From Candidatus Electrothrix yaqonensis (lineage in GTDB: Bacteria; Desulfobacterota; Desulfobulbia; Desulfobulbales; Desulfobulbaceae), in assembly GCA_047651235.1 (NCBI GenBank), contig CP178758.1, positions 1,200,001-1,232,000 of the forward strand: 32,000 nucleotides of DNA, in the 5' to 3' direction. Position numbers and translations under genes: made by a program. The notes under the pieces are model-generated. The model was not told the DNA's origin. It ran no database searches and saw only the letters and a list, made by a program, of their open reading frames with translations. Of this stretch, positions 1 through 32,000 are shown piece by piece (positions within the stretch are counted from its first letter, which is position 1; each line of letters begins with the position of its first letter).

Positions 1-1347
1 GATGACCTGAGCTGCGACCAGCCGCTGGCTGTCCGAATCGATCACCAGAACCTTTTTTGCTGAAACAGGCACCTGCAGTTGTTTTTTCAGCTTTTTGCCG
101 AACAGGCCCAGCCGGGTGGAAAGCTGATCTGCAGTAATGCCCTGCAGACCGCTTTCTTCGAGAAAAAGCAGCATCTTCTCTGTGATGCTGCCTGCCCCCT
201 CCCCTGCTTTGTAAACGGCAAAAACTTCATGATTGCGCTGCCGGTCCAGCTCCACCGTCCGTTTCCGTTTCGGCGGCGCATTATTGAGGATGACCCCGCC
301 GCCCAAGGTGCTGATGGGCGAATAACTGCGGAGGACAAAACGGTCTCCCGGCCAGACCGCCACCGGTTCCTGCAGGACGAGCTGAATGTCCGCATCCTGG
401 CCCGGCTCAACAATATCTTCCTCCATCAGCACTGCCCGCGCAAGGATCTCTCTGGTGCCCACATGCAGACGGACTTGGGTCCGGTTCTTCAGCTTCTTCG
501 GATTCCCGGCCAGATAATGGAGATCAGCGTCCAGCAGGGTTGAGGGCTGCATAGTACCGGACGTGGCGGCCAGATCACCCCGCTGAATATCTTCTTTTTC
601 AATGCCCTGCAGGTTGATGGCCGTGCGATGCCCGGCCTCGACAACTTCCTGTTCCTTGCCGTGCACCTGAATGCCCCGGATCTTGGCGGTCAGGCCGCCG
701 GGATAGAACATCAGGTCATCGCCCACAGAAATCCGCCCGGACAGGGAAGAACCGGTGATCACTGTGCCGAAGCCCTTCATGGAAAACACCCGGTCCACAG
801 CCAGCCGGAACGGACCAAACTCCTCCTGAAAGTTGATCTTCCGCACCTTCTCATCCAGCACCTTTTTAACGTCCTCAATCCCTTCGCCCGTGGTGGAAGA
901 AACAGCCAGGATCGGGGCCTCTTCCAGAAAACTGTCTACAAAAAAATCCGTGACTTCTTCCTCTACCATCTCCAGCCACTCTTCCTCGACCATATCCTTC
1001 TTGGTCAGGATGATCAGACCGTCTTTGACCCCGAGCAGACGGCAGATGTCGAAATGCTCCCTGGTCTGCGGCATGATGCCCTCATCAGCAGCGATGATAA
1101 AGGCCACCATGTCCATGCCTGCTGCTCCGGCCACCATATTGCGGACAAACTTCTCATGACCGGGTACGTCCACGATGCCCAGACGATGGCCGCAGGCAAG
1201 GTCGATGTAGGCAAAGCCCAGCTCAATGGTGATGCCCCGTTTCTTTTCTTCCTGCAGCCGGTCGGTTTCAATGCCGGTCAGGGCCCGGATCAGGCTGGTT
1301 TTACCGTGGTCAACATGACCGGCAGTGCCAAGGATTATTTCACGCAT
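1..1347 (-). CDS. selB: Selenocysteine-specific translation elongation factor SelB (first 449 codons; 3' end runs off the left window edge)
   Basis: It is absent from the ORF track because it is open at the edge. Reverse-strand translation from the ATG at 1345-1347 reads [50 protein letters not shown]...DVPGHEKF...ILTKKD. The GTPase boxes G1 (GHVDHGKT), G3 (DVPGHE) and G4 (TKKD) are in the SelB arrangement. The frame stays open to position 1. The + strand ORFs 79..543 and 628..1383 are antisense shadows. Confidence 0.9.
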
Positions 1348-1365
1348 GAATCTTGCTGCTTATTT

Positions 1366-1692
1366 TCACTGATTGGGTTGTGAACGGTTCCGGTTGGCCA
1401 GATATTCAATCACCGTTTCTTTCTCCTGCTGATTCAGGAAATTCATTTTGGTGGAATACCGCATCATTTTTTCTACAGTCTGCGTCCATTCCGCATGATC
1501 TTTATCCGCCGCATACACCCTGTCAATTCCGTGACAGGAAGAGCATTTCTGTTCGACCAGATTTTTTTCCGCAGCTCCGTCTTCCTTGGTAATTTCCTCA
1601 GCCGTTCCGGCGGACAAAGGTGCTGCCAGCAGCACGGACACAAACAGTACGGCAGCGAAAACATACCCTGAAAAAATTCTCCAGCTCTTCAT
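1366..1692 (-). CDS. Small secreted mono-haem c-type cytochrome, a stand-alone copy of the C-terminal module of the two upstream paralogs
   Basis: N-terminal signal-peptide-like segment (MKSWRIFSGYVFAAVLFVSVLLAAPLSAG) followed by a CSSCH haem-c motif. The pattern KCSSCHGIDRVY...EWTQTVEKMMRY...FLNQQEKETVIEYL recurs in ORFs 1706..2608 and 2739..3644. An AGGA sits 11 nt upstream of the ATG. The gene ends 18 nt before the selB start. Confidence 0.75.
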   Translation of the reverse strand: MKSWRIFSGYVFAAVLFVSVLLAAPLSAGTAEEITKEDGAAEKNLVEQKCSSCHGIDRVYAADKDHAEWTQTVEKMMRYSTKMNFLNQQEKETVIEYLANRNRSQPNQ

Positions 1693-1705
1693 AACAACAC
1701 CATCC

Positions 1706-6418: not shown

Positions 6419-6436
6419 CGAAAGATGATACCGCTG

Positions 6437-8426: not shown

Positions 8427-11400
8427 TTAGGCGGTTGTCGGTGTGCAATAATCCATGAGCTGCGCATCGATCATGGCCAGCATCTGTTTATCGTTCCAGC
8501 CCCGTACTTCCGCTGCGCTGTTCCGGCAGGTTGCGGCGCACATACCGCAGGCCTGGCAGGCCGCAGCATCCACGACAATGCGGTTATTCTCGGCATCAAA
8601 GGAACGGGCGCCGTAGGGACAGGCCTCGATACATCGTTTACAGCGCACGCACAGGGCATCATGAACAGTGGAGACCTCGCGGGCCAGGGGGATTTCCCGG
8701 CCGGACAGAAAGACCGAAGCCTTCTGGACTGCCGCTTCCGCCTGCATCACGGCCTCGCGCAGAGTCATGGGCGCATTGGCCACACCTACAGCATAACAGC
8801 CTGATTTATGGAATTCCACCGGTCGCCATTTTGGGTCAGCCTCGGCAAAAAAACCGTCCTGGTTCAGGGAAACCCCGAAAATATCCGCCAGCTCCTGATT
8901 CCCTGAATCCGCCTGAATACCGGTGGCCAGAACCAGCAAGTTTGCCGCAACCTCCAGCTCCGCATCCAGGATCGGATCCCTGAACATGACTGTGGGTTTG
9001 CCGAGCCGCACCTCCACCCTGGGTTTGTTTTCCGGGCTGTAGCTGACAAAGATCACCCCTTTACGCCGGGCCTCGGTGTAGTAGCGTTCATAGGGGCCAT
9101 AGCTCATCATATCCCGGTACAGGATAAACACCCTGACTTCCGGTTTCTTTTCCTTGATCAGCAGGGCATTCTGCAGGGCGCCCATGCAGCAGACCCGACT
9201 GCAATATTCCCGCGCCTCCTTTTCTCTGGAATCCACGCACTGAATCATAACGACCTCTTTCATCCTGCTGAAGTCGATTTCGTCAGCCCGGAGCGCCTTG
9301 CCGAATTCCGTATGGGTCATAATCCTATCCGAGTCCGCATAACTGTACGCTGTGGTCGGACTATTCTGATTGCCGGTGGCCAGAATGGTCGCGCCATGTT
9401 CAATGGAGAGAATCAGGCCGGAATCATGCTCTCTGATCTGGGTACTGTACTGCCCAGCCTGACCGCCGGAGCTGAGGATCTCGCTGTGCAGATGCACGGT
9501 GATCCGGCCGGTGTCGGCAACCCTGCGGGAGAGATCTTCAGCAATGGCCATAGGTTTGAGTCCGTCCAAGGTGGCGCTGACCTGATTGCCTGCATAACCG
9601 CCCAGTTGTTCAGTTCGTTCCACCAGATGGACCGCTGCGCCGCGTTCCGCCAGAGACAGGGCCGTGTACATGCCGACAATGCCGCCGCCCACCACCAACG
9701 CAGTCTGTTGGGGCGGAAGGATGTCGAACTGCAGGGCCGGGGTGAAACGCAGTCGGTCGATATGAGCGCGGGTTTCCCGGATCAGACGGGCAGTGAAATT
9801 CTCACCGCTGTCCTTTCCGCCCAGGGCCGCGCTGATGTCAAAGACCTTGACCAGGGAGGGATGGAAACCGGCCTGTTCAGCAATCTTCTGCAATTTATTC
9901 TGGTACAAGAACGGCTTGGCCGCGCCGATCAGCAGGCGGTTGCCTCCCGCCCGGCTGACAAGCTCGGTAAACCCGGCCAGCCCGTCGTCGCCGTAGATGG
10001 TCTCCAGGATATGCACCCTGGCCACGCTGCGCAGGGATTCCAACTCCTTGGTCAGCAGCTCAGCATCAAGCTTATCACCTTCTTTATCATTAAAGCCTTT
10101 GCAGAAGATTACTTCCAGCCGGGCCGCTTTTGTGTCCGCATCGGCATCTTCCTTCTGCTCCGCTTCCTGCTCCTCGTTCACCGTGGTGACATCCAGAGCG
10201 GCCAGGGCCTTGGCCGTCTCACCGGCTGCCGCAATGCCGCTGCTCACTGCCTCGCTGATATCGGTCAGGCCCATAAAGGAGCCGCAGATAAACACCCCGG
10301 GTTTACTGAGCCGCACCTTGCTGAGTTCGTCCGTGGGCAGGAGCCGCTGCTCGTTGACCTCCAGATTCAGCATTTCCGCAAAGCGCTGCTGTTCGGCAAA
10401 GGGGGCCTGGCCGGTGGAGAGCACGGTCAGGTCAAAGACCTCCACCTTGAACTCGTTGCTGTCCGGATCAAAATAGCGGATCTGCAGGCTGCCGTCCGGA
10501 TCAGCATAGACCTGCTGCACCCGGCAGCGGATCAGACGCACGCCTTTGTCCACCGCCTTTTCAAAATAGCGGAAATGATCCTTACCAAAGGTCCGCATGT
10601 CCATATAGAAAATGGTGGTCTCGGTGTCCGGACCGCCTTTTTCTTTGGCCAGCACAGCCTCTTTCAGGGCGAACATGCAGCAGATGGATGAGCAGTAATC
10701 CCGGCCCAGCCGCCGGTTGCGGGATCCCATGCACTGAATCCAGGCGATCCGTTTAGCCGGTTTGCCGTCCGAGGGCCGATGAATCACTCCGTCATAGGTG
10801 CCGGAGCGGCTGAGCAGGCGCTCAAAGGCCAGGGCCGTAACCACATCCGGGGACACGGCATAGGACTGCGCATCTTCAACCGTGGTGTCCCAGAGCTTCG
10901 CCCCTGCAGCCAGAATAATCGCGTTCACCTGCCGGGTCTCGATTTCCTCCTGCTGCTCGAAATCAATGGCCCCGTTGGGGCAGACCTCCAGGCAAGGCTG
11001 TTCGGTGCAGCCGCTGCAGGCATCCCGATCCACCCGAAGCATATTGGGCAGGTTATGGGGCACCATCTGATACACGGCCTTGCGCTTGGTCAGCTCATGG
11101 TTGAAGCCGTCCTCCACCTCCATCGGGCAGACCTTGATGCATTCGCCCATGCCGTTGCATTTGGCCGGATCAATATAGGCCGGTTTTCTGCGCAGATCCA
11201 CGCTGAACTTGCCCAGATCGCCGCTCACCGCTGTGACCTCGGTAAAGGGCAGGATCTCGATATTGTCGTGGTACAGGCTTTTGCGCATGCAGAACTGGGA
11301 GGCATACTCCCGCCCGACAATGGGCAGCATCCTGCAGATACCGCAATGATCCGTGGGAAACTGATGATCCAGCTTGGCCAGAATGCCGCCAATATGCGGG

Positions 11401-12674: not shown

Positions 12675-13100
12675 TCAGGCCGCTTCCTGTTTGTTTTTAA
12701 TCGGACTGGGGCCGAGGACTTTAATTTTTTCCGTCATTTCCTGAGCAACTTTCTGGAGCATGATGCCGTCGCTCGCCGCAATCCAGCGCAGCCAGAAGCG
12801 CTCTTCGCCGATGCCGTACTGCTTGAGAATTTCAGTCAAATGGGCAACCCTGCGTCTGGCCTTGAGATTGCCGTTGAGATAGTGGCAGTCACCGGGCCAG
12901 CAGCCGCCGATCAGCACCCCGTCCGCGCCGTTGAGAAATGCCTTGATCACGTACTTCGGATCCACCATGCCGCTGCACATCACGCGGATGATTTTCAGGT
13001 TCGGCGGATAAGCCAGCCGGGACGTACCGGCCAGGTCGGCTGCGGTAAACGTGCACCAATTGCAGAAAAAGGCGACGATTTGCGGTTCAAACTCACTCAT
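12675..13100 (-). CDS. mvhD: MvhD-like (methyl-viologen-reducing hydrogenase delta subunit family) [2Fe-2S] protein
   Basis: IVAFFCNWCTFTAADLAG...IIRVMCSGMVDP...GADGVLIGGCWPGDCHY is the canonical MvhD/FlpD signature. GGAGGA SD. It is the first gene of the operon. Confidence 0.9.
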   Translation of the reverse strand: MSEFEPQIVAFFCNWCTFTAADLAGTSRLAYPPNLKIIRVMCSGMVDPKYVIKAFLNGADGVLIGGCWPGDCHYLNGNLKARRRVAHLTEILKQYGIGEERFWLRWIAASDGIMLQKVAQEMTEKIKVLGPSPIKNKQEAA

Positions 13101-13217
13101 TGGGGTTCCTCCGGGTTCTCAGGTTTGGGAGTGGTCAAATATTTAAAAAATTCTGCTGAAAAAAATAGTTGTGTTTGCCAATTTTCGACTGACTTCCTAA
13201 CTACGGTTTTTTGGGGC

Positions 13218-14900
13218 TTAATGTTGCCATCGAAACATTTCTCCTGTATTGATACTTTCGCAGTTTGACATGCAATCTCTTAAATAATTCTGCATTAAGG
13301 GTATCGAAGATAACTCGCAAATAGCTGTATTTATAACCCAATAATATTCTTCCTTAGCGGATATTGAGTTGGCAAGATTAGCTATGCTGCATAATGCAGC
13401 CGCTTCTGTTACTGCCGGAAGATTTAATGCATTCTTACGAAATCGTTCATCGCTATATTTTTTATACACCTGAACACATTTAGTTAACTCCCAGCTTATT
13501 TCGATACCTAAAAAAGTTCTAATCGCCAGATTAGCCATACTTATGTCTTTCAATAAAGTTGAATGGCTATTCAACATCGATTCAATTTTACTTTCTGGAC
13601 GACTCTCAGGAAAAATATTAGTATACAACCAGTAAATCATTATCCATACTTCCTGTTTTGATTTTTTTATTTGCGGAAGTATTTTTTCTATCTCAACCAT
13701 CAATCTACTTAAATCAGTTATTGATGACCTCGATTCAGCTTCTTGAAATAATGTTGATAATATTTTGTTTGCATCCTTTTTGGGAAGATTTTCCGTTCTC
13801 CATAACCAATATTTCGAATCAAACTCAATTTCTATTCTTCCCGGAAGGTCATCTCTCCAATCAAATTTTTCTTTTTCTACGGATGGAAGGCTAATAATTA
13901 AATTATTAATCACATGATTAGCAAGATTAAACAGACCAAGATAGGTAAGGTAAGGCTCTCCAGAAAAAGTAAACAGATAGCCCTTAGCTACTAAGTCGTG
14001 ACATCTAAGCTGATGTTGGATTGGACTAAGCTCATGTACAAACTTAGACCTCATTGAGTAGGCATTCTTGATAGCTCTTTTAAGATGACTCTTACGGAGA
14101 TGTAGCTTTGTTTCCTTTTTTTGATTTATAAAAAAAATATCATCAATATTTCTTTCTATAAAGGTAACAAAATTCTGTTGTATCTTTAAATGCCTGTCTT
14201 TAAGTAAAGTCTCTTTGATTCTTTGAGATTGTTCATTATCTATGCTTTGCAATATTTCATCTAATTCTCTACGATTTCTTTCTTCCCAATCCGCCCAAGA
14301 AGGATGGTATCCTTGAAAATCTTTTGCGAGTGATTCAAGACCGTAAATTAAAATTGAATAAGATAAATCTATATTGTATTCAAATGAATCTATAGAATCA
14401 GAAATACTTTTCAGAGCCGAAATAATCTTTTTATATGATGCTCTGTCAAGAGAAATTACTTTATCTATTATCGAAGAAAAATTTTCTGCATTTTCTTTTG
14501 TTAATCTTTTTTCAACTTCAGTAAAAGATGGTATAAATTTTGATATGGGAAAGAAACTGCTTTTTTTATTAAGCACAGGCTTGCACACACGTACTACCTG
14601 CTCTCTAAATTCTGAAAAATAACTTTGCAGCCCAAAAGTACACAGCAATTTAAATTGTTCTAATATCTCCGCGTCACCTGCTCTGACTAGGTGAAATGGT
14701 GAACTTGTATCTTTTTCAATCTGATTTTTATAACTAAAGACATAAGTTCCGATATCTCCATGATAATCTACAGGCTCTATACTTCCTATTGATGTTTCTA
14801 TAGGAGCTACCCATATAGCATTAGAAAATAAAACACCTTTTCCATTATGAATGTACCTGTCTTTGCTCGTGAAAAATTTTCCAGATATAATTTGCAGCAT
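13218..14900 (-). CDS. AT-rich 560-aa orphan protein with a HEPN-like Rx4H motif (candidate abortive-infection/defence RNase)
   Basis: A single uninterrupted 1683-nt ORF in a stretch with very low GC (one 60-nt line at 13621 counts 18 G+C; a hdrA line at 9601 counts 38). ATG start with GGTGA upstream. The central segment reads ...SILIYGLESLAKD...(~90 aa)...IKNAYSMRSKFVHELSP, with R284-x4-H289 encoded at 14034..14051. There are no TM helices or other familiar catalytic motifs. It lies immediately downstream of an R-M pair. Confidence 0.75.
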   Translation of the reverse strand: MLQIISGKFFTSKDRYIHNGKGVLFSNAIWVAPIETSIGSIEPVDYHGDIGTYVFSYKNQIEKDTSSPFHLVRAGDAEILEQFKLLCTFGLQSYFSEFREQVVRVCKPVLNKKSSFFPISKFIPSFTEVEKRLTKENAENFSSIIDKVISLDRASYKKIISALKSISDSIDSFEYNIDLSYSILIYGLESLAKDFQGYHPSWADWEERNRRELDEILQSIDNEQSQRIKETLLKDRHLKIQQNFVTFIERNIDDIFFINQKKETKLHLRKSHLKRAIKNAYSMRSKFVHELSPIQHQLRCHDLVAKGYLFTFSGEPYLTYLGLFNLANHVINNLIISLPSVEKEKFDWRDDLPGRIEIEFDSKYWLWRTENLPKKDANKILSTLFQEAESRSSITDLSRLMVEIEKILPQIKKSKQEVWIMIYWLYTNIFPESRPESKIESMLNSHSTLLKDISMANLAIRTFLGIEISWELTKCVQVYKKYSDERFRKNALNLPAVTEAAALCSIANLANSISAKEEYYWVINTAICELSSIPLMQNYLRDCMSNCESINTGEMFRWQH

Positions 14901-15031
14901 ACTTGTTAAGTCACCAACTTTACACGGAAATGGTATAAAATCTCATTCATGGATAAAGTGACCTTCCAGAGTGCGCAGAGCTTACGGAATGCGTGGAAGG
15001 TGTTGTTTACTGTTTTTTCATATTCAGCCAG

Positions 15032-16237
15032 TTACTTATTTTTCTCACACCATATTTTATCAATCAATGACCCGGCAATAATACCTGCCAGTTCAACAGG
15101 AACGGCATTACCGATCTGCCGCATACTTTCCGACCAAGAGCCTGTTATCCTGTACTCCTCATGAAAAGTCTGTAGAAGCTTCGCTTCATAGGTTGTGTAA
15201 TACCGTACAGAACCGTCAGCATTCCGCAGCATATTTTCTCCGCCCGGAACACCGTGCCCTCCGGCTTTGATCGTCTTTGAGGGAAAGTCTATAAAACTCC
15301 CGGTATGCCCCGGATAAGCCCGCGCTCCTTTCCGGAGAATATGCTCCGGGTGATAGGCCCCTTCCTCATCCGGGTGAGGAACTGCTTGCAGTGTATCCCG
15401 CACAGTACGCCACGCCTTGCTTGCAGGCGGGAAAAGCTGCGGCTGTTTTTGCAGTCTTTGGATAAAGGCGGCAGTTCGTCCGTCATAACAGGATATATCC
15501 GCCGGATTAATTTCGTGTCGTTCCCAATACTCCTTTGTAATAAACTGCGAACGAATCAATGACTCCAAAGAATGCGTCTGCTCAGGAAATGACCATTCCA
15601 CCTCCAGATCGTTTCTGATACCGACAATGACAACACGTTCTCTTCGTTGCGGAACTCCGTAATCAGCAGCATTGATCAGCCGGAAAAGAACATTATATTT
15701 TATTCCCTTATATCTCTGTGAGGTATGCGCTCTTTCAAGTCTACGGAGATGTTCTTGCCATGCTTCGGATGATCGTATTTCAAGTTCGGGATAGGTAAGT
15801 CGAAGCAATATGTATTCAAAATACGTGGAGAAAGATTTCCTCAAAAGTCCCTTCACGTTTTCAAAGATAAATACGGAAGGCGTGCATTGCGCAATGGCTT
15901 TGCAGGCATAGGGAAACATATCCCTCTGATCGGTATTTCCCCTGTGCTTCCCGCCTATGGAGAAAGGCTGACAGGGAGGACCGCCCGCAACAATATCCAC
16001 ATGTCCATATGCACCAAAATCAAAATCCCGTATATCAGTATGATGGACAATATCCGGCTGAAAATTATGTTTGAGGGTGGCAGCGGCATCTTTATTCAGC
16101 TCAACCAAAGCCTCATGCCTGACGCCCTGTTCAGCAATGCCCAGCGCCAAGCCGCCAGCCCCGGAAAACAACTCAAGGCTCTTAATATTCTTATTCGCTT
16201 CCATATTTCGCCTTGAGTGAAGCCATGAAGTCGGCAA
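15032..16237 (-). CDS. dcm: DNA (cytosine-5)-methyltransferase (type II R-M modification subunit)
   Basis: All the classic m5C MTase motifs are present: I LFSGAGGL, IV GGPPCQPFS, VI FENVKGL, VIII QRRERVVIVG and X GNAVPV. An alternative start is the ATG at 16204 (MEANKNIKSLELFSGAGG). Either start overlaps the 3' end of the upstream restriction gene. Confidence 0.92.
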   Translation of the reverse strand: MPTSWLHSRRNMEANKNIKSLELFSGAGGLALGIAEQGVRHEALVELNKDAAATLKHNFQPDIVHHTDIRDFDFGAYGHVDIVAGGPPCQPFSIGGKHRGNTDQRDMFPYACKAIAQCTPSVFIFENVKGLLRKSFSTYFEYILLRLTYPELEIRSSEAWQEHLRRLERAHTSQRYKGIKYNVLFRLINAADYGVPQRRERVVIVGIRNDLEVEWSFPEQTHSLESLIRSQFITKEYWERHEINPADISCYDGRTAAFIQRLQKQPQLFPPASKAWRTVRDTLQAVPHPDEEGAYHPEHILRKGARAYPGHTGSFIDFPSKTIKAGGHGVPGGENMLRNADGSVRYYTTYEAKLLQTFHEEYRITGSWSESMRQIGNAVPVELAGIIAGSLIDKIWCEKNK

Positions 16238-16841
16238 TGCTTTTCAGCAACAGGTTTCTGTCGCTGTGTTTCCCTCGACATTTTTCCGCCCAAAGCCGAC
16301 CGGGATGACAGACATCCCAGTCGGACATCGCCTGTTCGTATCTTCCCCTGCCGGGATCATGGTTCCCGAATCCGTCAACAAGAGTGTTCCAAAGCGGCTT
16401 GTACTTCCTGATCAATGCAGCTTCAACAGTGCCGATAAGGTCGCTTTCCGCACCTTCAAGGATCATGAATCTGCAACGAAAATCTTCTGGCTCAATACTT
16501 TCAGCAGCCTGAAGACTTCTTCCATGCTCCCGAATCCTGTTATTGAGCTCATAACTTTCCGAGCTGGCAGAACTGCCTGAACGTGCCTGCCGCCATCCTT
16601 TCGGGACCGCCTTGCCGATATAGACCGGCAGAGCATACGATGTTCGATTGATCTCGTGAAAGTCTTTATAGATTCCGGCACGAGCTGTGCAGTATATCGC
16701 ATAAACACCGGTACCCTGAAACCTTTCCGGTACCGGAATGGACAAAACAGGTGTTCCATTGAAAAATCGAATGGTGTCTTTGATTATCTCCTCAACATCC
16801 GGAGAATGAAAAACATGTTTATTGCGATCAAATCGTATCAT
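16191..16841 (-). CDS. Eco29kI-family GIY-YIG type II restriction endonuclease
   Basis: GVYAIYC...PVYIGKAVPKGWRQ (a GIY...YIG-like half-motif), NNRIREHGRS (R..EH), EAALIRKYKPLWNTLVDGFGNHDPGRGR...SDWDVCHPGRLWA. From memory, this block order matches the Eco29kI/Cfr42I family, which cuts CCGCGG. It is paired with and overlaps an m5C MTase, as in Eco29kI. Confidence 0.75.
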   Translation of the reverse strand: MIRFDRNKHVFHSPDVEEIIKDTIRFFNGTPVLSIPVPERFQGTGVYAIYCTARAGIYKDFHEINRTSYALPVYIGKAVPKGWRQARSGSSASSESYELNNRIREHGRSLQAAESIEPEDFRCRFMILEGAESDLIGTVEAALIRKYKPLWNTLVDGFGNHDPGRGRYEQAMSDWDVCHPGRLWAEKCRGKHSDRNLLLKSIADFMASLKAKYGSE

Positions 16842-16858
16842 CTGGTGCTTGAGTCACA

Positions 16859-17356
16859 TCACTTCATCAGCTTCTTCGGCCTGAGAAACACCACCAACTC
16901 CGCAGCCCCTTCAGCAAGATCCCGCCAGCGGCATCCCTTCCTTATGGCAAGCTGAACATAGCCGCAGGTCGGCACATTTTTCACCGCGCTGTTACTGAGC
17001 GCATTGCAGAAATCCGTTACCGCCGGATTATGCCCGATGATCAGCGGCTTGGTTATCGACTCATCAAGTGCCCTGCACCAATCAAAAAGTACCCTGCTGT
17101 CAAAGGTGTAGAGCTGCTCCGCAGTCTGCCACTGAATCTCCGCATTCAAGCACCTGCTGATACGTTCTATGGTTGCCTGCGCCCTGACCGCCGGGCTGCA
17201 GAAGACGTGCTCAAAACAGCACCCGACAGCAGCAATATGCTGCGCCATGAAACGGCAGGTCTTCCTGCCGCGCTTGTTCAGCGGCCTGTCAATATCTGCC
17301 AGCGAGACATCCTTCCAGCTCGACTTGGCATGGCGGATCAGGTGAATCTTTTTCAT
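16859..17356 (-). CDS. Histidine phosphatase superfamily protein (SixA-like phosphohistidine phosphatase)
   Basis: IHLIRHAKSSW (RHA catalytic motif), DIDRPLNKRG, CSPAVRAQAT and LIIGHNP, at a length (165 aa) typical of the SixA branch. Confidence 0.8.
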   Translation of the reverse strand: MKKIHLIRHAKSSWKDVSLADIDRPLNKRGRKTCRFMAQHIAAVGCCFEHVFCSPAVRAQATIERISRCLNAEIQWQTAEQLYTFDSRVLFDWCRALDESITKPLIIGHNPAVTDFCNALSNSAVKNVPTCGYVQLAIRKGCRWRDLAEGAAELVVFLRPKKLMK

Positions 17357-17374
17357 CGGTCCGATACACTCAAG

Positions 17375-18199
17375 TTACCCCTTTGGCCTGATCGCCTCAA
17401 TCGTTGCGGAAACAACATAGTCTTCGATCCCGCTGCCGGGCACCCAGGTTTGGATAAACTCTCTGCTCTCGTCTTTCGGTTGGATTTCTATTGCAGAAAA
17501 CCCTGCCTCTGTAAGCATATGTTGAATATCCGTCATTGATGATGCTCCGGAAATGCAGCCGGTAAGCATTGCCATATCTTTTTTTAGCGTTTCCGGGAGT
17601 TCTGCAGTGGCGACGACATCTGAAACAGCCAAGCGTCCGCCGGGCTTCAGTACTCGGAACATTTCCGTGAAGACTTTTGCTTTTTCAGGAGATAAGTTGA
17701 TCACACAATTGGAGATAATGACATCCACAGTTGCGTCGGCAACCGGCAGGTATTCTATCTCTCCGAGACGAAAACTGACGTTGCTGTACCCTGCACTGTC
17801 GGCATTTTTTCGTGCCCTGGTAACCATCTCCGGTGTCATGTCAACACCGATAACCTGTCCCGATTCCCCGACCTCCTTGGCGGCAAGAAAACAGTCAAAG
17901 CCGCCGCCGCTCCCTAAATCAAGGACGGTTTCACCGGGTTGCAGTGACGCGATAGCCTGAGGATTTCCGCAGCCCAAACCCAAGTTCGCGCCATCCGGGA
18001 CTTCATCAACATCAGTCTTTGAGTAGCCGAGTCCTATCGAGGTGTTCTTTACATCAGGGGCCGATGGTGTGCAGCATGAGGTTGCTGAACACCCGCAACC
18101 TGAAATGCCGGATTCGGCCACCTTGCCGTATTCCTCACGAACGGCATTACGAATATGGTCATGAGCTGATTGTGCCATTTCTATCTCCCGGAGTTTCAT
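17375..18199 (-). CDS. arsM: Arsenite S-adenosylmethionine methyltransferase (ArsM-type class I SAM MTase)
   Basis: The SAM motif VLDLGSGGGFD is present, along with the ArsM cysteines (SGCGCSATSCC, GLGCGNP, SNCVINL, LTGCISGA). The C-terminus ...DYVVSATIEAIRP is typical of the family. An alternative start is the ATG at 18178 (MAQSAHD...) with a GGGAG SD. Confidence 0.85.
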   Translation of the reverse strand: MKLREIEMAQSAHDHIRNAVREEYGKVAESGISGCGCSATSCCTPSAPDVKNTSIGLGYSKTDVDEVPDGANLGLGCGNPQAIASLQPGETVLDLGSGGGFDCFLAAKEVGESGQVIGVDMTPEMVTRARKNADSAGYSNVSFRLGEIEYLPVADATVDVIISNCVINLSPEKAKVFTEMFRVLKPGGRLAVSDVVATAELPETLKKDMAMLTGCISGASSMTDIQHMLTEAGFSAIEIQPKDESREFIQTWVPGSGIEDYVVSATIEAIRPKG

Positions 18200-18255
18200 T
18201 AAAGAAGGCTGACCTCAGATAGAATATTTATACCGAATATCTTCGGCTGCCTTTA

Positions 18256-21200
18256 TCACTGCAGCAGCCCGTCAATCTCGGCAAAAACCTGCCTGTCCGT
18301 GAAATGCTTAACCTTGGCCGCGCCGCTGGGACAATGGCCTGCACAGCTGCCGCAGCCCTTACACACCGCCTCGTTGACCTCGCTGACGCCTTTATAGGCA
18401 TTAAAGGTAATTGCCCCGTAGGCGCAGAGTCCGATACAGGCCTGGCAGCCGATGCAGATGTCCGGGTCAATCCCGGAAACCATCGGCGAGATTTCCACCG
18501 TACCGGAGGAGCTCAAGGCCAGGCATTCCGATGCCGCGCCTTTGGCCTGGGCCACGGTATCCGGGATATCCTTGGGTCCCTGACAGACCCCGGCCAGAAA
18601 AACGCCGCTGGACGGCGTAGACACCGGTTCCATTTTCGGATGCTCCTCCTGGAAAAAACCGCTCGGCCCGGTGCTGATGCCGAAGGTGCGGGCCACGTCC
18701 AGGGCATCCTTGCGCGGCTCGATAGCCATGCAGAGAATCGCCATTTCCACATTAATTTCCACCATTCTGCCGGACAGGGTGTCTTCGGCCCGGACAACCA
18801 GGGTTTTATCTTCCAGCTCGTTGATCTGCCCGGCTTTGCCCCGGATCATGCGTACGCCTTCAGCCTGCACCTTTTGGTAGAACTCCTCATACCCCTTGCC
18901 GAAGCAGCGCATATCAATATAGAAATTATAGACCTGCGTGTCATGGCCGCATTTATCTTTGAGCAGATGGGCAAACTTCAAGGCATACATACAGCAGACC
19001 CGTGAACAGTACTCATGATGATTTATATCCCGGCTGCCGATGCAGTGCAGGATGGCCACGCTTTTCGGAATCTTGGTGAACTCGCCCTGGTCATCCCGGA
19101 TGCGGATTTTACCGGAAGTAGGACCGGTGGCGTTGCTCAGGCGCTCAAACTCAAAGCTGGTGAACACATTGCGGTGTCTGCCATAGCCGTACTGAGACAT
19201 CGGGGTCGGGTCCATCAGGTCAAAGCCGGTAGCCACGACAATGGAGCCGACATCCAGCTCCAGTTTTTCCGGCTGCATATCATGGTCAATGGCCTTGGGC
19301 ATACAGGCATCCACGCACTGATAGCATTCGGAGCAGACAGCGCATTCCAAGCAGCGTCTGACCTCCCGCTGCACCTGCTCCTCTGTGAGGCTGCTGAGGA
19401 TCTCCCGGAAATTGCCATTCCGTTCCTTCAGGGGCAGGCGGGCCGGGCGTTCCCGTTTCATCATTTTTGTGCCGTTCAGCTCAGGTTTGACATACTCCCA
19501 CGTTCTTTCCCGGCCCTCTTCAAGGGATTTGCCGTTCAAGAAGCGATCAATACTCTCAGCTGCCTGTTTGCCGGATTCAATGGCTTCCACCACGGAACGT
19601 GGTCCATACACCGCATCCCCTCCGGCGAAAATCCAGCTTTTCGGGGACTGGAGGGTCAGCGGATCAACATCCAAGCCGCCCCGGTTGGTGACAGCAATAT
19701 TCTGATCATCGGTAAAATCCAGCTCGGCGCTCTGGCCGATGGCCACAATCACGGTGTCCGCGTTCAGAGTAGTCAGCTCGCCTTCATCGTACTGGGGCCG
19801 GAAGGCACCGTCCGCATCAAACACGGCTGTGCAGCGTTTAAACTCTACGCCGGAGCAGATGTTATCTTTGCCGATGAACTGTTTCGGGCCCAGCGAGTTG
19901 ATGATCTCCACCTTTTCCTCCAAGGCTTCTTCGACTTCATAATCCCAGGCAGGCATTTCGTCGCGTTTTTCCAAGCAGATCAGAGTGACGTTTTCAGCGC
20001 CCACCCTTTTGGCGGTCAGGGCCACATCAACAGCCACATTGCCGCCGCCGATCACGATGACCTCTTTGCCCACAGCCATATCTCTACCCAAGGCAACATT
20101 CCGCAGAAAGGCCACGCCCGGCAGGATGCCCTGCATGTCCTCGCCCGGCACACCCAGGGCGCGGCTGCCGTGCAGACCGGTACCGATGAACAGGGCCTTA
20201 TAACCTTCCTTGCGCAGGCCTTCCGTAGTGACGTCTCTGCCGAGGGCGGTGTTTGTTTTGATTTCAACGCCCAGTTTTTCGATCATGCCGATTTCTTTGG
20301 CCAGAATATCCTGCGGCAGGCGGTATTCGGGAATCCCCACGGCCATCATGCCGCCCTTGACCGGCAGTTTTTCAAAGATTGTGACCTGATAGCCTTTCTG
20401 GGCTAGATAATAGGCTGCAGTCAGCCCGGCCGGACCTGAACCGACCACGGCCACTTTTTCCTCCCGCTTCTCGGCAACCTCCGGCAGGTACGGCTCGTCT
20501 GCAGCCAGATCAAGATCAGCAAGGTAGCGGTGCAGATGCTGGATGGCCATAGGCTGATCCGCATCTCCCCGTGTGCAGGCTCCTTCACAGGGATGATGAC
20601 AGACCCGGCCGCAGGTGGCAGGAAAGGGATGCTCCTTTTTAAAGAGCCGCACAGCTTCTTTGTACTTGCCTAACTCCATCAGGGCGATGAACCCCTGAAT
20701 GCTGACATGGGCCGGACAGGTGGCCTTGCACGGGGCAGTCCCTTTTTTGTCAATGATATAGGTAATGGGCACTGCCTGGGGAAACGAACGGTAGATGGCC
20801 TTGCGGTCAGCAATGCCCACATCCCACTCGTTGGGCCGGGTAATGGGACATACCTTGGCGCAGTCGCCGCAGCCGGTGCAGATTCCCTCTTTCACGTATC
20901 TGGGCTTTTTATCCACTTTGACCTTGAAATTGCCGACAAAGCCCTCCACCTCTTCCACTTCCGCATGGGTGATCAGTTCGATATTCGGGTGCTGGCCCAC
21001 GGCAACCATTTTCGGGGTGCCGATACAGGCGGCGCAGTCTAGGGTGGGAAAGGTTTTATCGTACTGGAGCATGTGATTGCCCACAGTGGAGCCCTTTTCT
21101 ACGAGATAAACCTTGTACCCGGCCTTGGCAATATCCAGGGATGCCTGCATTCCAGCAATACCGCCGCCTACCACCAAGGTATTGGTGTTGACGGAGAATT

Positions 21201-21612
21201 TGCTCGGAATGAGCGGACTCTGTCTGGTCACCCTGGTAATACCGGCCCTGACCACGGTTTTAGCTTTTTCCGTGGCCTCATCCTCATCTTCTGTGACCCA
21301 GGAGACATGCTCCCGGACGCAGACCATGTGGAATGCCTTGTAGGGATTCAGCCCGGCCCGCTGACAGGCAGCCCGGAAGGTCTTTTCATGCATTCTCGGC
21401 GAACAGGAGGCAACGACAACGCAGTCAAGATTATGCTCTTTGATGTCTGTTTCCACCAGCTCTTGTCCGGGGTCAGAACACATGAAGAGATAATCACGGC
21501 CCACCACCACGCCGGGCAGGGTCGTTGCATATTCAGCAACTTCTTGAACCCGGACTCTGTAGGCGATATTGATCCCGCAGTGACAAATATAAAATCCTAT
21601 GCGCTTCGACAT
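18256..21612 (-). CDS. hdrL: HdrA-like / GltD(NfnB)-like fusion flavoprotein ('HdrL'-type, 1118 aa)
   Basis: HdrA N-terminal Cys domain (IGFYICHCGINIA...VVASCSPRMH) and FAD fold LVVGGGIAGMQASLDIAKAGYKV. A glutamate-synthase-small-subunit-like segment is inserted (CPAHVSIQGFIALMELGKYKEAVRLFKKEHPFPATCGRVCHHPCEGACTRG, then VAVVGSGPAGLTAAYYLAQKGY and VIVIGGGNVAVDVA). The sequence then returns to HdrA motifs (LHCIGSRD...YCSRVCCMYALK) and ends in a 2x[4Fe-4S] domain (CIGCQACIGLC, CKGCGSCAGHCP). GGAGAA SD. Confidence 0.85.
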   Translation of the reverse strand: MSKRIGFYICHCGINIAYRVRVQEVAEYATTLPGVVVGRDYLFMCSDPGQELVETDIKEHNLDCVVVASCSPRMHEKTFRAACQRAGLNPYKAFHMVCVREHVSWVTEDEDEATEKAKTVVRAGITRVTRQSPLIPSKFSVNTNTLVVGGGIAGMQASLDIAKAGYKVYLVEKGSTVGNHMLQYDKTFPTLDCAACIGTPKMVAVGQHPNIELITHAEVEEVEGFVGNFKVKVDKKPRYVKEGICTGCGDCAKVCPITRPNEWDVGIADRKAIYRSFPQAVPITYIIDKKGTAPCKATCPAHVSIQGFIALMELGKYKEAVRLFKKEHPFPATCGRVCHHPCEGACTRGDADQPMAIQHLHRYLADLDLAADEPYLPEVAEKREEKVAVVGSGPAGLTAAYYLAQKGYQVTIFEKLPVKGGMMAVGIPEYRLPQDILAKEIGMIEKLGVEIKTNTALGRDVTTEGLRKEGYKALFIGTGLHGSRALGVPGEDMQGILPGVAFLRNVALGRDMAVGKEVIVIGGGNVAVDVALTAKRVGAENVTLICLEKRDEMPAWDYEVEEALEEKVEIINSLGPKQFIGKDNICSGVEFKRCTAVFDADGAFRPQYDEGELTTLNADTVIVAIGQSAELDFTDDQNIAVTNRGGLDVDPLTLQSPKSWIFAGGDAVYGPRSVVEAIESGKQAAESIDRFLNGKSLEEGRERTWEYVKPELNGTKMMKRERPARLPLKERNGNFREILSSLTEEQVQREVRRCLECAVCSECYQCVDACMPKAIDHDMQPEKLELDVGSIVVATGFDLMDPTPMSQYGYGRHRNVFTSFEFERLSNATGPTSGKIRIRDDQGEFTKIPKSVAILHCIGSRDINHHEYCSRVCCMYALKFAHLLKDKCGHDTQVYNFYIDMRCFGKGYEEFYQKVQAEGVRMIRGKAGQINELEDKTLVVRAEDTLSGRMVEINVEMAILCMAIEPRKDALDVARTFGISTGPSGFFQEEHPKMEPVSTPSSGVFLAGVCQGPKDIPDTVAQAKGAASECLALSSSGTVEISPMVSGIDPDICIGCQACIGLCAYGAITFNAYKGVSEVNEAVCKGCGSCAGHCPSGAAKVKHFTDRQVFAEIDGLLQ

Positions 21613-26233: not shown

Positions 26234-27433
26234 CAGGGCTGTTCAATTCTAGAAAATCCCGGCGTAATCAAACAGACGATTTATATCCATACAGTTCCTG
26301 AAAAGCTCCCGGCTGACATTTTTCACCTTGTTCTTACGAAGAATATTGAGAGCAAAGCTTCTCAGTTTCGCAAATATGTGCGGATTGCAACGAATTCGGG
26401 AGCGGTCTTCGCCCATAGAAACATCCCGAACATAATGATTTCCATTCTCGATCCGCCAATGCCCCAGGATTCCCTGACATATTTCTTCAGCGTCCGAACC
26501 GGCTGTTGAAACATAAAAGGATGTCTCATGAGTGTTTTTCCATTTTTTCTTCTTTGTATCAAACACCTGACGAAATCGATCGATTCTGATGACGGCTTCG
26601 GCCGAACTCCATTTTTTCGCATCCGTAAGCAGCGGGGACAGAAAAACTTCCACTTTGCGACTCTCTATACGGTTTCGTTTTTTTTTCAAAAGGCCCCGTG
26701 AAAACATCATCAGGAACAGACGTATTCGCGATATTTTCACAGTCGTTCAGGAGAGTTTTCTGATTTTTTTTAACCTGAGCAATCACATCGTTTCCCGTTT
26801 CAGCGGCGGCCTGAAGAGTTTTTTTCTGACAATGAAGGGCGTCGAAGGTAAAAATGCGGTCGGATAAACCGAGTTCTTTCATCAGTTTCCGCGCCGCCGG
26901 GATTTCATTGCTTTTCTCCCTGATTTCTTCATGGCCGAGAACGACGGCGCGGTCGCCAGCAAAAGCACTCAATATCTGAAGCTGATTAATATCCTTCATG
27001 TTATCGAAACTTCCCCGGAGAGTTTTGCCGTCGCAATGAATAAATTCTCCGTCCGGTTCCTCTTCCGCGAGAGCTTTGCCGTGCTCCCTGAAAATCCGCT
27101 CAAGTTCCGAACCGGAAGTATTCAGAATGACAGTGCGGATCGTTGTATATGCAGGAGCTTTTTTCCAGTCCAGGCCGAAATATTCATTGAGCCTTTCACG
27201 ATGCGCATCAACGAACAGATGGATTTTGCGATAAGAATCCGAACCGCTCAGGATCGCCATGATCGAAAACAGAAGAATATGCGTAAGCTCATATCGCCGG
27301 CCCTGCCCGCGTCGATGATCTTTGATTGTGTTCAGCAAAAAAACAGCATGCAGAATCCTCGTGTAAAGTTTTTCTGTATCAATTACTGCATACGTCTTGA
27401 AAATACAAGCTCTTATAGAACTGAACAGCCCTG
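26234..27433 (-). mobile_element. ISAs1-family insertion sequence, 1200 bp, with ~18-bp imperfect terminal inverted repeats and a 10-bp TSD
   Basis: The left end CAGGGCTGTTCAATTCTA (26234-26251) and the reverse complement of the right end, CAGGGCTGTTCAGTTCTA (27416-27433), match 17/18. The element is flanked by the direct repeat ATCAGAGAAG. It encodes a DDE transposase of ISAs1 type. Confidence 0.85.
26249..27338 (-). pseudogene. ISAs1-family transposase split into two overlapping frames (259-aa + 163-aa ORFs) by a frameshift at an A9 run
   Basis: The N-terminal ORF (MLNTIKDHRRGQGRRYELTHILLFSIMAILSG...CDGKTLRGS...FDALHCQKKT) and the C-terminal ORF (...GHWRIENGNHYVRDVSMGEDRSRIR...) together give one typical ~365-aa ISAs1 transposase. 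The frames can be joined at the T9/A9 homopolymer at 26678-26686 (...FTGPFEKKK|RNRIESRKVEVF...). Confidence 0.75.
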
Positions 27434-29180: not shown

Positions 29181-29189
29181 AACTCTCTC

Positions 29190-30500
29190 CTATTGTATGG
29201 ATTGAATCTCGCGTGCTATTTCTTCCTGCGAAAAAGGCAGCCCGGTAAACTTCAGTATATTATGCGCAACAGGGACTCCGGCGTACCCCTTGAGCAGGGT
29301 TGCAAACTGCGCTGAGGCATTATTCTCTACAACTGCAATTCGCTTATACCGGCTCAAAATATCTTCTATGTTTTCCGGAAGCGGCCAAACTTGGGAAAAA
29401 TGCATACCAGCGGGTGGCGATTCAAGGAGTTGAAACGCATGCTTTACCGCATTTCCTGTTGAGCCCCAACTGACCACGAGCAGCTCATTATCTTTATTAC
29501 CGAAACAGTCAGGCTCTATGACTTCTTTACGCACCAAATTGAACTTACGGAAAAATCGTTTTTCCACCATAGCCTTCCTGGTCTCGTTCAGATTTTCTGT
29601 TATCAGGCCTTCTTCATCGTGTTCATCGCTGTCCACCTTTACAAGCCCTTTACCGAATCCCGGTATGCCCCGTGGCGAGACACCGCTTTCCGTAATGGCA
29701 TAACGCTTATAATCTTGTGCGGTTTCGGTAAAATGGTGTTCAGAAACCGTCTTGTCCAAGTCCCAAACAGGTGTATTGCACAATGAATCAACAAAATACT
29801 GGTCCGTCAGGATAAAAACCGGAACCTGAAACCTATCAGCCAGATCAAAAGCCCGGTTGGTCAGATAAAAGGCCTCTTCAACTGTTCCGGGAGCATAAAT
29901 AATTCGGGGAAAATCACCATGCCCGCTGTAGAGAACAAGATGAAGATCACCCTGTTCGGTACGGGTAGGCAGCCCTGTGCTGGGACCGGGTCGCTGCGCT
30001 ACATGGACGACAAAAGGAATTTCCGTGATACCGCTTAAACTGATGCCCTCCGACATAAGGGCCAACCCGCCGCCCGAGGTTGTGACAAAAGCTCGGGCAC
30101 CGGCATACCAAGCACCAAGTGCCATGTTCACGGCCGTAATTTCATCTTCAACCTGTTCGATAATACATTCTGTCTGCTCAGACCAGCCAGCCAGTTTGAC
30201 CAACACCCCGGTTGCAGGCGACATCGGGTACGATGCAACATAACGCACGTTTGCCGCAATTGCGCCCATAGCCACAGCTTCTGTTCCGCTGATCAGCATC
30301 TCATCCTGAACAGATGCATCTTTTTCTATATCGACCTCCAGGTATTCCGCTATCCTGGCAGATTCCTTGATCCCCTCTTTTGCGGCCTGGATATTTTCCT
30401 GGATAATCTTTTCATCTTTTCCCTTAACAGAGGTAGAAAACTCTCGACAGAGACGATCTCCGGATTCGCTTGATTCAACTTTTCGCAGGCAGGGATTCAA
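29190..30500 (-). CDS. 2-oxoacid:ferredoxin oxidoreductase, alpha subunit (the functional start is possibly the ATG at 30299; upstream codons look like the tail of a lost gamma domain)
   Basis: ISGTEAVAMGAIAANVRYVASYPMSPATG..., TTSGGGLALMSEGISLSG and PFVVHVAQRPGPSTGLPT are alpha-subunit (POR_N / transketolase-like) motifs. The track ORF begins at a TTG. The first ATG (residue 68, MLISGTEA, preceded by AGGA) gives the usual ~369-aa alpha subunit. Confidence 0.85.
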   Translation of the reverse strand: MNPCLRKVESSESGDRLCREFSTSVKGKDEKIIQENIQAAKEGIKESARIAEYLEVDIEKDASVQDEMLISGTEAVAMGAIAANVRYVASYPMSPATGVLVKLAGWSEQTECIIEQVEDEITAVNMALGAWYAGARAFVTTSGGGLALMSEGISLSGITEIPFVVHVAQRPGPSTGLPTRTEQGDLHLVLYSGHGDFPRIIYAPGTVEEAFYLTNRAFDLADRFQVPVFILTDQYFVDSLCNTPVWDLDKTVSEHHFTETAQDYKRYAITESGVSPRGIPGFGKGLVKVDSDEHDEEGLITENLNETRKAMVEKRFFRKFNLVRKEVIEPDCFGNKDNELLVVSWGSTGNAVKHAFQLLESPPAGMHFSQVWPLPENIEDILSRYKRIAVVENNASAQFATLLKGYAGVPVAHNILKFTGLPFSQEEIAREIQSIQ

Positions 30501-30823
30501 TATCTTAACTTCACCGTATGATTTGTTTCTGCACAGGCTGACTGCGGTCAGCCGCTGAACGACAGAATCAAAAAAACAAAAAACTTTACTTTTTCTCCTC
30601 TGTTCCGAGTAAAAAATACCCGTCTATCATCTGCATCAGAATCCCTCCTGTTCATTACGGGATGTATTGTCAGGTAGGAATGACAAACATTCTTTGTGAT
30701 CCCCGGATACTGTCCGTAATACACGCTGTTTCTTTGTGCTGCCGTGCCTTTTTTTATTCAGGCATAATATTTGCTTAGTTATACTGTAGCTCAGTTTACC
30801 GCTCTGGAGGAGACCCCCTGTTT

Positions 30824-32000
30824 ATGCAGACCTATCGCACTGAAAAAAGGCTCTTTATCGGAATGTTTGCAGTACTGCTTCTGGTATGGCCCCTGCTGCT
30901 CTCCGTGCTGCTGTTCTGGAACACACAGCACATGAAAAAAACAACAATATCAATGGCTGAAAATAATGCCAGGATGATATGGGAAAAAGATACCCTGTAC
31001 CGCTCCTGGATCGTTTTTCACGGAGGAGTCTATGTCCCGGTTTCCGAACAAAACCCTCCGAACCCTTATCTTTCGATTGAACACCAGGATGTACAGATCG
31101 GAGGACGGGAATATACCCTGGTCAATCCGGCATATATGTTCCGGCAGATGTATGCCCAGAATCCGGAGCATCCGACAATCCGGGGACGCCTGACAAGCCT
31201 TGCGCCGATGCGGCCGGACAACGGGCCGACGGCGTGGGAGGAACAGGCGCTCCGCTCCTTTGAGCACGGTAATGAGGAGTACATAGAAACCGCCGACGTT
31301 AAAGGGAAATACTATCTCCGTTTCATGCGTCCTGTCAGAATGGAAAAGGCATGTCTGCGCTGCCATCAGGAAGAGGGCCGCAGGCTCGGTGAAATCAGAG
31401 GCGGCATAAGCCTCACGATTCCTTTGGAAGACCAGTTTTTCCTGTACAGAAAGAATGTCAGCAAACTCGGACGGGCTTTCTTGGCAATCTGGCTGGCCGG
31501 AACCGCGATTATTTGTGTAACCTACACCATTGTCCGCAGGATGCTCGGCACGCTTGTCCAGAGTGAAAAGCAGAAGACAACCATTCTGGACACACTGGAC
31601 AGGGTGGGAGTCGGATTATATATTGTTGACAGAACATTCCGGATCCGTTACGCCAACAGCACCATGAGCAACTGGTTTCCCTGTGAACCCGGATCAACAT
31701 GCCATGAGTCCGCCCACGGGCAGGAGCATCCCTGTACCTCCTGCTGCCTGGAACAGGTGGTGCAGGGTCATGAAACCATCCGGTATGAACTCAGCTTTCA
31801 GGAGCGGAGCTTTGATGTTGTCGCCACCCCTATTCTCCTGCACGACGGAACACCGGCAAAAATGGAAGTCAGACTGGATGTGACAGACCGAAAAAAGGCT
31901 GAACAGGAGCACCGCAAGGCAATCGAGCTGCAGAAGGCCAAAGAGGTGGCAGAAGCTGCAACCCAAGCAAAATCAATGTTTCTGGCCAATATGAGTCATG
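30824..32000 (+). CDS. Sensor histidine kinase: TM + periplasmic DUF3365-type haem-c (CxxCH) sensor domain + TM + PAS + start of HisKA (3' end beyond the window)
   Basis: It is absent from the ORF track because it is open at the right edge. ATG at 30824, with GGAGGA upstream. Translation reads MQTYRTEKRLFIGMFAVLLLVWPLLLSVLLF (TM1), ...YTLVNPAYMFRQM...GKYYLRFMRPVRMEKACLRCHQEEG..GEIRGGISLTIP (the DUF3365/Tll0287-like pattern with CLRCH), FLAIWLAGTAIICVTYTIV (TM2), a PAS-like segment, a coiled coil, and then SMFLANMSH (H-box). Confidence 0.85.
   Translation, partial: MQTYRTEKRLFIGMFAVLLLVWPLLLSVLLFWNTQHMKKTTISMAENNARMIWEKDTLYRSWIVFHGGVYVPVSEQNPPNPYLSIEHQDVQIGGREYTLVNPAYMFRQMYAQNPEHPTIRGRLTSLAPMRPDNGPTAWEEQALRSFEHGNEEYIETADVKGKYYLRFMRPVRMEKACLRCHQEEGRRLGEIRGGISLTIPLEDQFFLYRKNVSKLGRAFLAIWLAGTAIICVTYTIVRRMLGTLVQSEKQKTTILDTLDRVGVGLYIVDRTFRIRYANSTMSNWFPCEPGSTCHESAHGQEHPCTSCCLEQVVQGHETIRYELSFQERSFDVVATPILLHDGTPAKMEVRLDVTDRKKAEQEHRKAIELQKAKEVAEAATQAKSMFLANMSH

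Follow-up and report, generated by a model that had tools for sequence, protein, structure and literature searches.

Closest described systems and the pair found in Candidatus Electrothrix yaqonensis

The closest described relative of the system considered here is the Eco29kI restriction–modification (R-M) system, which is encoded by the small mobilisable Escherichia coli plasmid pECO29 as an operon of an endonuclease gene (R) followed by an overlapping methyltransferase gene (M). R.Eco29kI is a GIY-YIG enzyme that cuts CCGC/GG, and M.Eco29kI methylates the second C of the site, giving C(m5C)GCGG (PMC3039593). The endonucleases Eco29kI, MraI and NgoMIII all cut CCGC/GG, and so does Cfr42I of Citrobacter freundii, a tetrameric member of the same GIY-YIG family that is only 32% identical to Eco29kI and shows that CCGCGG specificity is kept down to this level of identity (PMC2241918). 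Neisseria gonorrhoeae has a chromosomal Eco29kI-like pair with the R-then-M gene order and a system recognising CCGCGG, called NgoAIII in PMC6789123 and NgoMIII in PMC2241918. The avoidance of restriction sites has been known since the 1990s (Gelfand and Koonin 1997, as cited in PMC4687349). According to Rusinov et al. 2015 (PMC4687349), it depends on the residence time of an orthodox Type II system, and for long-lived systems of this type, up to 100% of the cases show site avoidance.

In the present work, a stretch of 32,000 nucleotides from the chromosome of the cable bacterium Candidatus Electrothrix yaqonensis (contig CP178758.1, positions 1,200,001 to 1,232,000; hereafter, the window) was analysed. 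It carries an Eco29kI-like R-M pair inside a core hdr-like operon and contains no CCGCGG. The three features that are central to the analysis are as follows (positions are those of the window).

16191..16841, minus strand: Eco29kI-family GIY-YIG Type IIP restriction endonuclease, 216 amino acids (aa), intact; assigned by Pfam, PADLOC, PDB chains and alignment
15032..16204, minus strand: cognate C5-cytosine DNA methyltransferase, 390 aa, intact; assigned by Pfam, TIGR00675, PADLOC and alignment
1..32000, no strand: CCGCGG-free stretch; exact count on both strands, with Markov, dinucleotide-shuffle and codon-shuffle null models

The endonuclease matches the Pfam profile RE_Eco29kI (PF09517) over positions 1–163 of 164, with an E-value of 8e-68 and 227.8 bits against a curated cut-off of 30.8. 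Significant similarity was also found with the PADLOC REase_II profile (E 1e-90) and with the Eco29kI chains 3MX1 and 3NIC of the PDB (E 1e-78 over 203 aa). In a full-length alignment, the protein is 54% identical to Eco29kI from end to end. All six active-site residues listed for Eco29kI in PMC1952068 (Y49, Y76, R104, H108, E142 and N154) are kept, as Y47, Y74, R102, H106, E140 and N152, and they are invariant across an alignment of 27 sequences of the family. By these sequence-level tests, the protein is a member of the Eco29kI family. Besides its own 3.74 Mb contig, the endonuclease is on record only in one 1.2 kb Logan contig, and megablast found no match to the R-M region in the complete E. 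coli genomes, all of which were searched; an E. coli origin was thus rejected.

The methyltransferase matches Pfam PF00145, TIGR00675 and PADLOC MTase_II (E 9e-145). Its start is the ATG at 16204, ahead of the ELFSGAGG motif I, and the gene overlaps the end of the endonuclease gene, stop codon included, by 14 bp. The layout, R then M with overlapping genes, is that of pECO29, where the overlap is only 1 bp. The protein is 55% identical to M.Eco29kI and 57% identical to the N. gonorrhoeae homologue throughout, the target-recognition region included, and these two were the top methyltransferase matches among 72,556 records of a plasmid collection. In the alignment of the target-recognition region, extended stretches are identical, and the window protein has one insertion of 7 aa in the variable region relative to M.Eco29kI. 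The endonuclease and the methyltransferase are encoded by two separate intact open reading frames (ORFs) with complete domains, as in orthodox systems. The gonococcal endonuclease is 54% identical to that of the window; the gonococcal locus (L165) is presumably NgoAIII, the known CCGCGG system of this species, as an Eco29kI-like pair is encoded there. Compared with Eco29kI, Cfr42I is a much more distant relative of the window protein.

The sequence-only reading had assigned CCGCGG specificity to the enzyme on the grounds that Eco29kI and Cfr42I cut this site, a premise with which the literature agrees (PMC2241918). The assignment itself is borne out, as far as homology can tell, by the similarity to Eco29kI, by the match of the methyltransferase in the target-recognition region and by the fact that CCGCGG is the most avoided palindrome across 79 species carrying the enzyme family (see below). 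Thus, CCGC/GG is very probably the cleavage site of the window endonuclease, and protection by the methyltransferase very probably takes the form C(m5C)GCGG.

Absence of CCGCGG from the window

An exact search of both strands found no CCGCGG in the 32,000 bp of the window. The number expected under Markov models of orders 1, 2, 3 and 4 is 8.5, 13.9, 10.4 and 6.9, respectively. The absence had been noticed by eye in the sequence-only reading, together with about 38 one-base terminal variants. Both observations were reproduced: the recount gave 39 variants (CCGCGC, 16; CCGCGT, 7; CCGCGA, 4; GCGCGG, 7; ACGCGG, 3; TCGCGG, 2), and the sole mismatch was GCGCGG, for which about 6 had been reported. 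When the site was counted by computer against Markov expectations and among the palindromic hexamers, as that reading had proposed, CCGCGG was clearly under-represented in the window. The DNA is not GC-rich, as had been stated: the GC content is 50.6% overall, 53–59% in the core genes and 32–37% in the segment at 13–15 kb.

The other null models gave similar expectations. In 100 dinucleotide-preserving shuffles of the window, 8.0 sites (standard deviation 2.8) were expected. The most demanding null model was a codon shuffle, in which synonymous codons were permuted inside each of 26 genes, with protein sequences and per-gene codon usage kept; here, 9.2 sites (standard deviation 2.8) were expected, and none of the 2000 shuffles had zero sites. 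The coding sequences offer 117 opportunities for CCGCGG (19 Pro-Arg, 76 xCC-Ala-Gxx and 22 xxC-Arg-Gly), from which about 9.7 sites are expected. CCG is the top proline codon (48%) and CGG the top arginine codon (30%), and the pair CCG-CGG is used in 0 of the 19 Pro-Arg pairs. Depending on the null model, the Poisson probability of zero sites lies between about 1e-3 and 1e-6. The absence of CCGCGG from the window is real and goes beyond chance.

CCGCGG is not the only palindrome that is scarce in the window. Nine palindromic hexamers, CCGCGG among them, are absent; CCATGG was found 0 times against 5.7–12.9 expected, and GCCGGC, with 3 sites against 19–30 expected, is more strongly depleted than CCGCGG. 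Judged by the window only, CCGCGG is second or third among the 64 palindromes. The earlier inference that the depletion speaks for CCGCGG specificity is supported, with the caveat that this hexamer does not stand out by itself in the window.

Depletion in the Electrothrix clade

Among named organisms, the closest relatives of the window proteins are from Candidatus Electrothrix species. Relatives of the locus were recovered through orthologues of the HdrL-like gene that lies upstream of the R-M pair. The R-M clade set comprised the window, the loci L024 (a Ca. E. marina metagenome-assembled genome), L082 (a contig encoding an endonuclease also annotated, in identical form, in Ca. E. aestuarii), L083 (a metagenome contig from JGI), L084, L146 and L174, and the unlinked locus L166 of Ca. 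Electrothrix sp. GW3-4. In these 147 kb, 1 CCGCGG was found (L024, position 16183), whereas the order-1 and order-3 Markov models predict 38 and 51, respectively. The observed-to-expected ratio (O/E) of about 0.02–0.05 is far below the threshold of 0.78 for under-representation used in PMC4687349. After DNA alignable to an earlier member of the set was masked, 86 kb were left; this non-redundant DNA contains 0 sites against 17–29 expected (P ≤ 3e-8).

Five outgroup loci, in which the corresponding spacer is empty, contain 15 CCGCGG in 92 kb, with 15.5–17 expected. The 2-oxoacid oxidoreductase gene at 29–30 kb of the window, used as a probe, found one close relative, GW3-4, whose locus adds 18 kb with 0 sites. 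On the L174 contig (GCA_976560315.1; HdrL 89% identical), 0 sites were found against 7–17 expected. An anecdotal illustration is given by the HdrL alignment: at conserved Pro-Arg, Thr-Arg-Gly and Pro-Ala-Gly positions the outgroups spell CCGCGG, and the clade uses varied synonymous pairs one change away from it.

Other palindromes are also avoided in the R-M clade: 17 GCCGGC were found against 51–114 expected and 0 CTCGAG against 11–30, and O/E is 0.2–0.3 for GGCGCC, GAGCTC, GTCGAC, CACGTG and CCCGGG. The outgroups do not avoid these palindromes. Of the palindromes expected often in the clade, CCGCGG deviates the most (O/E 0.02–0.03). The avoidance of the other palindromes suggests that these genomes encode, or once encoded, several more R-M systems outside this locus.

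Depletion in other carriers of the enzyme family

One genome per GTDB species was scanned with an alignment of the enzyme family as the query. At least 546 relatives were detected, and 80 loci were returned; the cognate methyltransferase adjoins the endonuclease in 78 of them. The carrier set consisted of 79 of these loci (L024 was excluded), 1.0 Mb in total, from cyanobacteria, Betaproteobacteria, Bacteroidota, Planctomycetota and others. In this set, 79 CCGCGG were found against 352 expected; the O/E of 0.22 is the lowest of the 64 palindromic hexamers, and sites are lacking altogether from 19 of the 40 loci for which 3 or more were expected. The control set, 78 loci (0.92 Mb) around HdrL homologues without the enzyme, showed an O/E of 0.78 for CCGCGG (rank 19 of 64), and a total lack of sites was seen in none of its 25 loci with at least 3 expected. 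Because the control set differs in taxonomic make-up, the ranking within each set is the safer comparison. Across the family, the depletion does not correlate with identity to the window proteins (Spearman coefficient about 0).

Insertion site and age of the system

The R-M pair lies in an accessory block that separates two genes of the hdr-like operon. The features of this region are as follows.

18256..21612, minus strand: HdrL/HdrA2-like flavoprotein gene, upstream anchor of the insertion (Pfam and NCBIfam matches)
13101..18255, no strand: accessory block between the HdrL-like and FlpD/MvhD genes (empty short spacer in outgroups)
17375–18199, minus strand: ArsM-like gene, variable extra in the accessory block
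16859–17356, minus strand: SixA-like gene, variable extra in the accessory block
13218–14900, minus strand: AT-rich ORF of 560 aa, variable extra in the accessory block
12675..13100, minus strand: FlpD/MvhD gene, downstream anchor of the insertion (Pfam PF02662, E 1e-50)

In at least four Electrothrix lineages (the window, L024, L082 and L083), the R-M pair is found between HdrL and FlpD; the FlpD/MvhD protein is 91–94% identical in the last three. The spacer of L082 (9969–11923) holds R and M alone, and that of L083 (9431–14793) holds SixA, R, M, a UPF0175/DUF3368 toxin–antitoxin pair and the 560-aa ORF. Across these lineages, R is 81–89% and M 88–92% identical, and the flanking operon genes are 79–94% identical. 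The divergence of R and M thus falls within the range of the flanking genes, as expected for vertical co-inheritance, and the pair is therefore old. In the outgroups (L170/L171, L172, L173, L085 and L086; HdrL 64–78% identical), FlpD follows after a spacer of about 40–300 bp without R-M genes. The empty spacer indicates that the system entered in an ancestor of the clade and stayed. The long-term selection assumed in the sequence-only reading is in line with the same intergenic position in at least four lineages and with a depletion confined to that clade.

In L024, the endonuclease gene (10001–10764) is broken by a 104-bp AT-rich insertion that starts with TAA, before the tyrosine equivalent to Y74, and the methyltransferase is intact; the gene may truly be a pseudogene, or the break may stem from the assembly.

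At the insertion junctions, no target-site duplication is evident by eye; no repeat search was made. A scan of the region at 12.5–18.4 kb for promoters and terminators gave matches at chance level, which have no bearing on co-transcription. The R-M pair is co-oriented with the operon, and its insertion spot is now a hotspot of variable genes (ArsM-like, SixA-like, toxin–antitoxin and the 560-aa ORF). The fixation of an R-M system inside a core energy-metabolism operon is unusual; the Eco29kI pair, as noted, is carried by a plasmid. It was also considered whether the pair might have been domesticated, either co-transcribed with the core operon and stabilising it as an addiction module or serving an epigenetic role at the remaining sites; we regard this as quite unlikely. 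Such a reading builds on the observation that the pair, which landed in a spacer of roughly 50 bp, has remained tightly packed through the diversification of marine Electrothrix while its target was nearly purged. If it applied, the locus would be a mini defence island inside the operon and not a conventional mobile R-M system.

Proposed explanation of the avoidance and its alternatives

The absence of CCGCGG is, in our view, probably explained by restriction-site avoidance imposed by a long-resident orthodox Type IIP R-M system. An Eco29kI-type operon (R then M, overlapping) would have been inserted between the HdrL-like gene and FlpD, in their short spacer, in an ancestor of a marine Candidatus Electrothrix clade and vertically inherited since then. 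Methylation would be imperfect, with lapses after replication or repair or under unbalanced expression, and each chromosomal CCGCGG would then carry a small risk of a self-inflicted double-strand break. Mutations removing the sites would be favoured over many generations, within genes mostly as synonymous codon choices, and CCGCGG would thereby be almost lost from the lineage. In this scheme, we infer all of the following: the recognition sequence, the enzymatic activity, the methylation and self-restriction as the selective agent. The lack of the site and its statistical strength, the identity and intactness of R and M, their conserved position, the confinement of the depletion to the clade and the association across the enzyme family are direct results of the analysis. 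The attribution of avoidance to a resident endonuclease has been published for other systems and is summarised in PMC4687349; the cases described there are of the same kind, with a palindromic 6-bp site, separate R and M, and an old system widespread in the clade. The Electrothrix case differs from such generic cases in being tied to a datable insertion with empty-site outgroups.

Several points weigh against this explanation. CCGCGG specificity, which is strongly favoured, is derived from homology to three or four characterised enzymes and from the avoidance in the host and the enzyme family. The clade counts cover the window and about 115 kb of relatives (about 147–180 kb), against 3.7 Mb for the source genome. 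Avoidance in the clade extends to many palindromes, so that a depletion coinciding with the insertion is not unique evidence. Some carriers of the family are not or little depleted (L033, L028, L040, L038 and L056), with an apparently full-length endonuclease and an adjacent methyltransferase: L033 (Ca. Pollutiaquabacter) has 14 sites against 14–20 expected, L028 has 9 against 14, and L056 has 4 against 3.6. On L174, HdrL is followed at 8928–10239 by unrelated genes (Endonuclease_1 and DAC), without the R-M pair or FlpD. Finally, R and M are moderately atypical in composition, with a GC content at third codon positions (GC3) of 0.45–0.48 against 0.63–0.74 in the core genes.

Some of these points can be accommodated. 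The non-depleted carriers are candidates for recent acquisition or for inactive enzymes, and they fit the published finding that avoidance occurs in only about half of orthodox systems and not for recent arrivals (PMC4687349). The L174 pattern may reflect a rearrangement with the system located elsewhere, the trace of a lost system or a chimeric contig. As for composition, the sequence-only reading had found the foreign character of the insert at odds with long residence. This tension mostly dissolves because the strongly AT-rich part is a separate gene, the 560-aa ORF (GC 32%, GC3 0.25), which is a recent arrival; what is left of it is the moderate atypicality of the R-M pair. The 560-aa ORF is 97.5% identical between the window and L083 and is absent from L082 and L024, whereas the flanking genes are only 86–92% identical, which indicates recent transfer.

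Among the alternatives, a chance or compositional artefact, in which the scarcity of the CGCG core and codon usage would suffice for zero sites in 32 kb, is hardly credible. CGCG is under-represented in the window (55 occurrences), the order-4 Markov model gives the lowest expectation, 6.9, and other palindromic hexamers are missing as well; however, the probability of zero sites is still about 1e-3 at that expectation, the codon shuffles never reproduced the absence, the outgroups have a similar composition without it, and it is repeated in 54 kb of non-overlapping DNA of the clade relatives. Chance is effectively refuted because the codon shuffles, the outgroup counts and the non-redundant clade count all disagree with it. 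Another possibility is mutational decay, in which C(m5C)GCGG would deaminate to CTGCGG or CCGCAG and the sites would erode without any cost of self-cutting. The deamination of 5-methylcytosine is an established mutational hotspot, which favours such decay. This hotspot is also discussed in PMC6789123. The window encodes a C5 methyltransferase, the second C is the base modified by M.Eco29kI, and 136 CTGCGG/CCGCAG were observed in the clade against 59.5 expected (Markov order 1). At the same time, the O/E of these products is 1.98 in the controls, 2.29 in the clade and 1.34 in the 79 carriers, that is, without R-M-specific enrichment, and relative to CAGCGG/CCGCTG, the variant arising by transversion at that position, they are less frequent in R-M genomes (ratios of 1.05 and 0.94) than in the controls (1.59). 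The codon pairs used by the clade at the conserved HdrL positions are varied and not mainly C-to-T products. Deamination could have contributed to the loss of sites, and as the whole explanation we consider it very unlikely.

The causality could also be reverse or indirect: the lineage might already have been poor in CCGCGG, either because systems of the same specificity had been present before or because many R-M systems were purging palindromes in general, and thus have been permissive for the gain and retention of the system. The resident enzyme would then not be the main cause of the depletion. The avoidance of many other palindromic hexamers in the clade, the lack of CCGCGG on L174 with no R-M pair at the site, and the documented cases of avoidance without a resident system, regarded as traces of lost systems (PMC4687349), are all compatible with this. 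Nevertheless, CCGCGG frequencies are normal in outgroups at 64–78% HdrL identity, which places the loss of sites on or after the branch of the insertion; CCGCGG has the most extreme O/E of the frequently expected palindromes in the clade, and the association of the enzyme family with the depletion spans unrelated phyla. Such a course of events is unlikely, and avoidance caused by the resident system is preferred.

Significance of the Electrothrix case

The case is a new and unusually clean example of a well-known phenomenon and does not change the biology of R-M systems. In the literature library that was searched, papers mentioning both Electrothrix and restriction–modification were not found. 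The datable insertion, the empty-site outgroups and the near-total loss of the target in the descendants make the locus a natural experiment for site avoidance. To our knowledge, no genetic system is available for cable bacteria (Candidatus Electrothrix). If active, the CCGCGG-specific R-M system would be a concrete barrier to transformation in these bacteria. In vector design, CCGCGG, GCCGGC, CTCGAG and the other purged palindromes would be the sites to remove or pre-methylate.

Other genes of the window

As for the 560-aa ORF, sequence and profile searches found no match in Pfam, NCBIfam, PADLOC or the PDB, and PHROGs gave one sub-threshold match (E 0.08). A confident AlphaFold model of it (pLDDT 88.8) was compared with the PDB by Foldseek and gave no significant match. 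The ORF belongs to a widespread, uncharacterised family of 633 representative clusters, in which Pfam matches were found in 0 of 40 members. The family has an invariant R-x4-H motif (R284 and H289 in the window protein), which resembles the HEPN RNase signature. A homologue with 36% identity adjoins genes for an OLD-family ATPase, a UvrD-type helicase, an MvaI/BcnI-type R-M pair and an integrase; this neighbourhood suggests that the 560-aa ORF is a defence gene.

In the right part of the window, the gene at 29193–30446 (minus strand) encodes a homologue of the 2-oxoacid:acceptor oxidoreductase alpha subunit. Relative to its 565-aa orthologue in Ca. Electrothrix sp. GW3-4, about 147 N-terminal residues are missing; the remainder is 94% identical, and the gene is probably truncated. 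The best matches beyond GW3-4 are only 56–58% identical (Planctomycetota and Thermotoga), and because of this, the oxidoreductase gene pair looks horizontally acquired. An ORF with a DDE_Tnp_1-associated domain (26559–27338, minus strand), a transposase fragment, lies in a region with a GC content of 42–46%, beside an ORF with an Lcl C-terminal domain. In its right third, the window has the look of a mosaic composed of mobile and acquired DNA.

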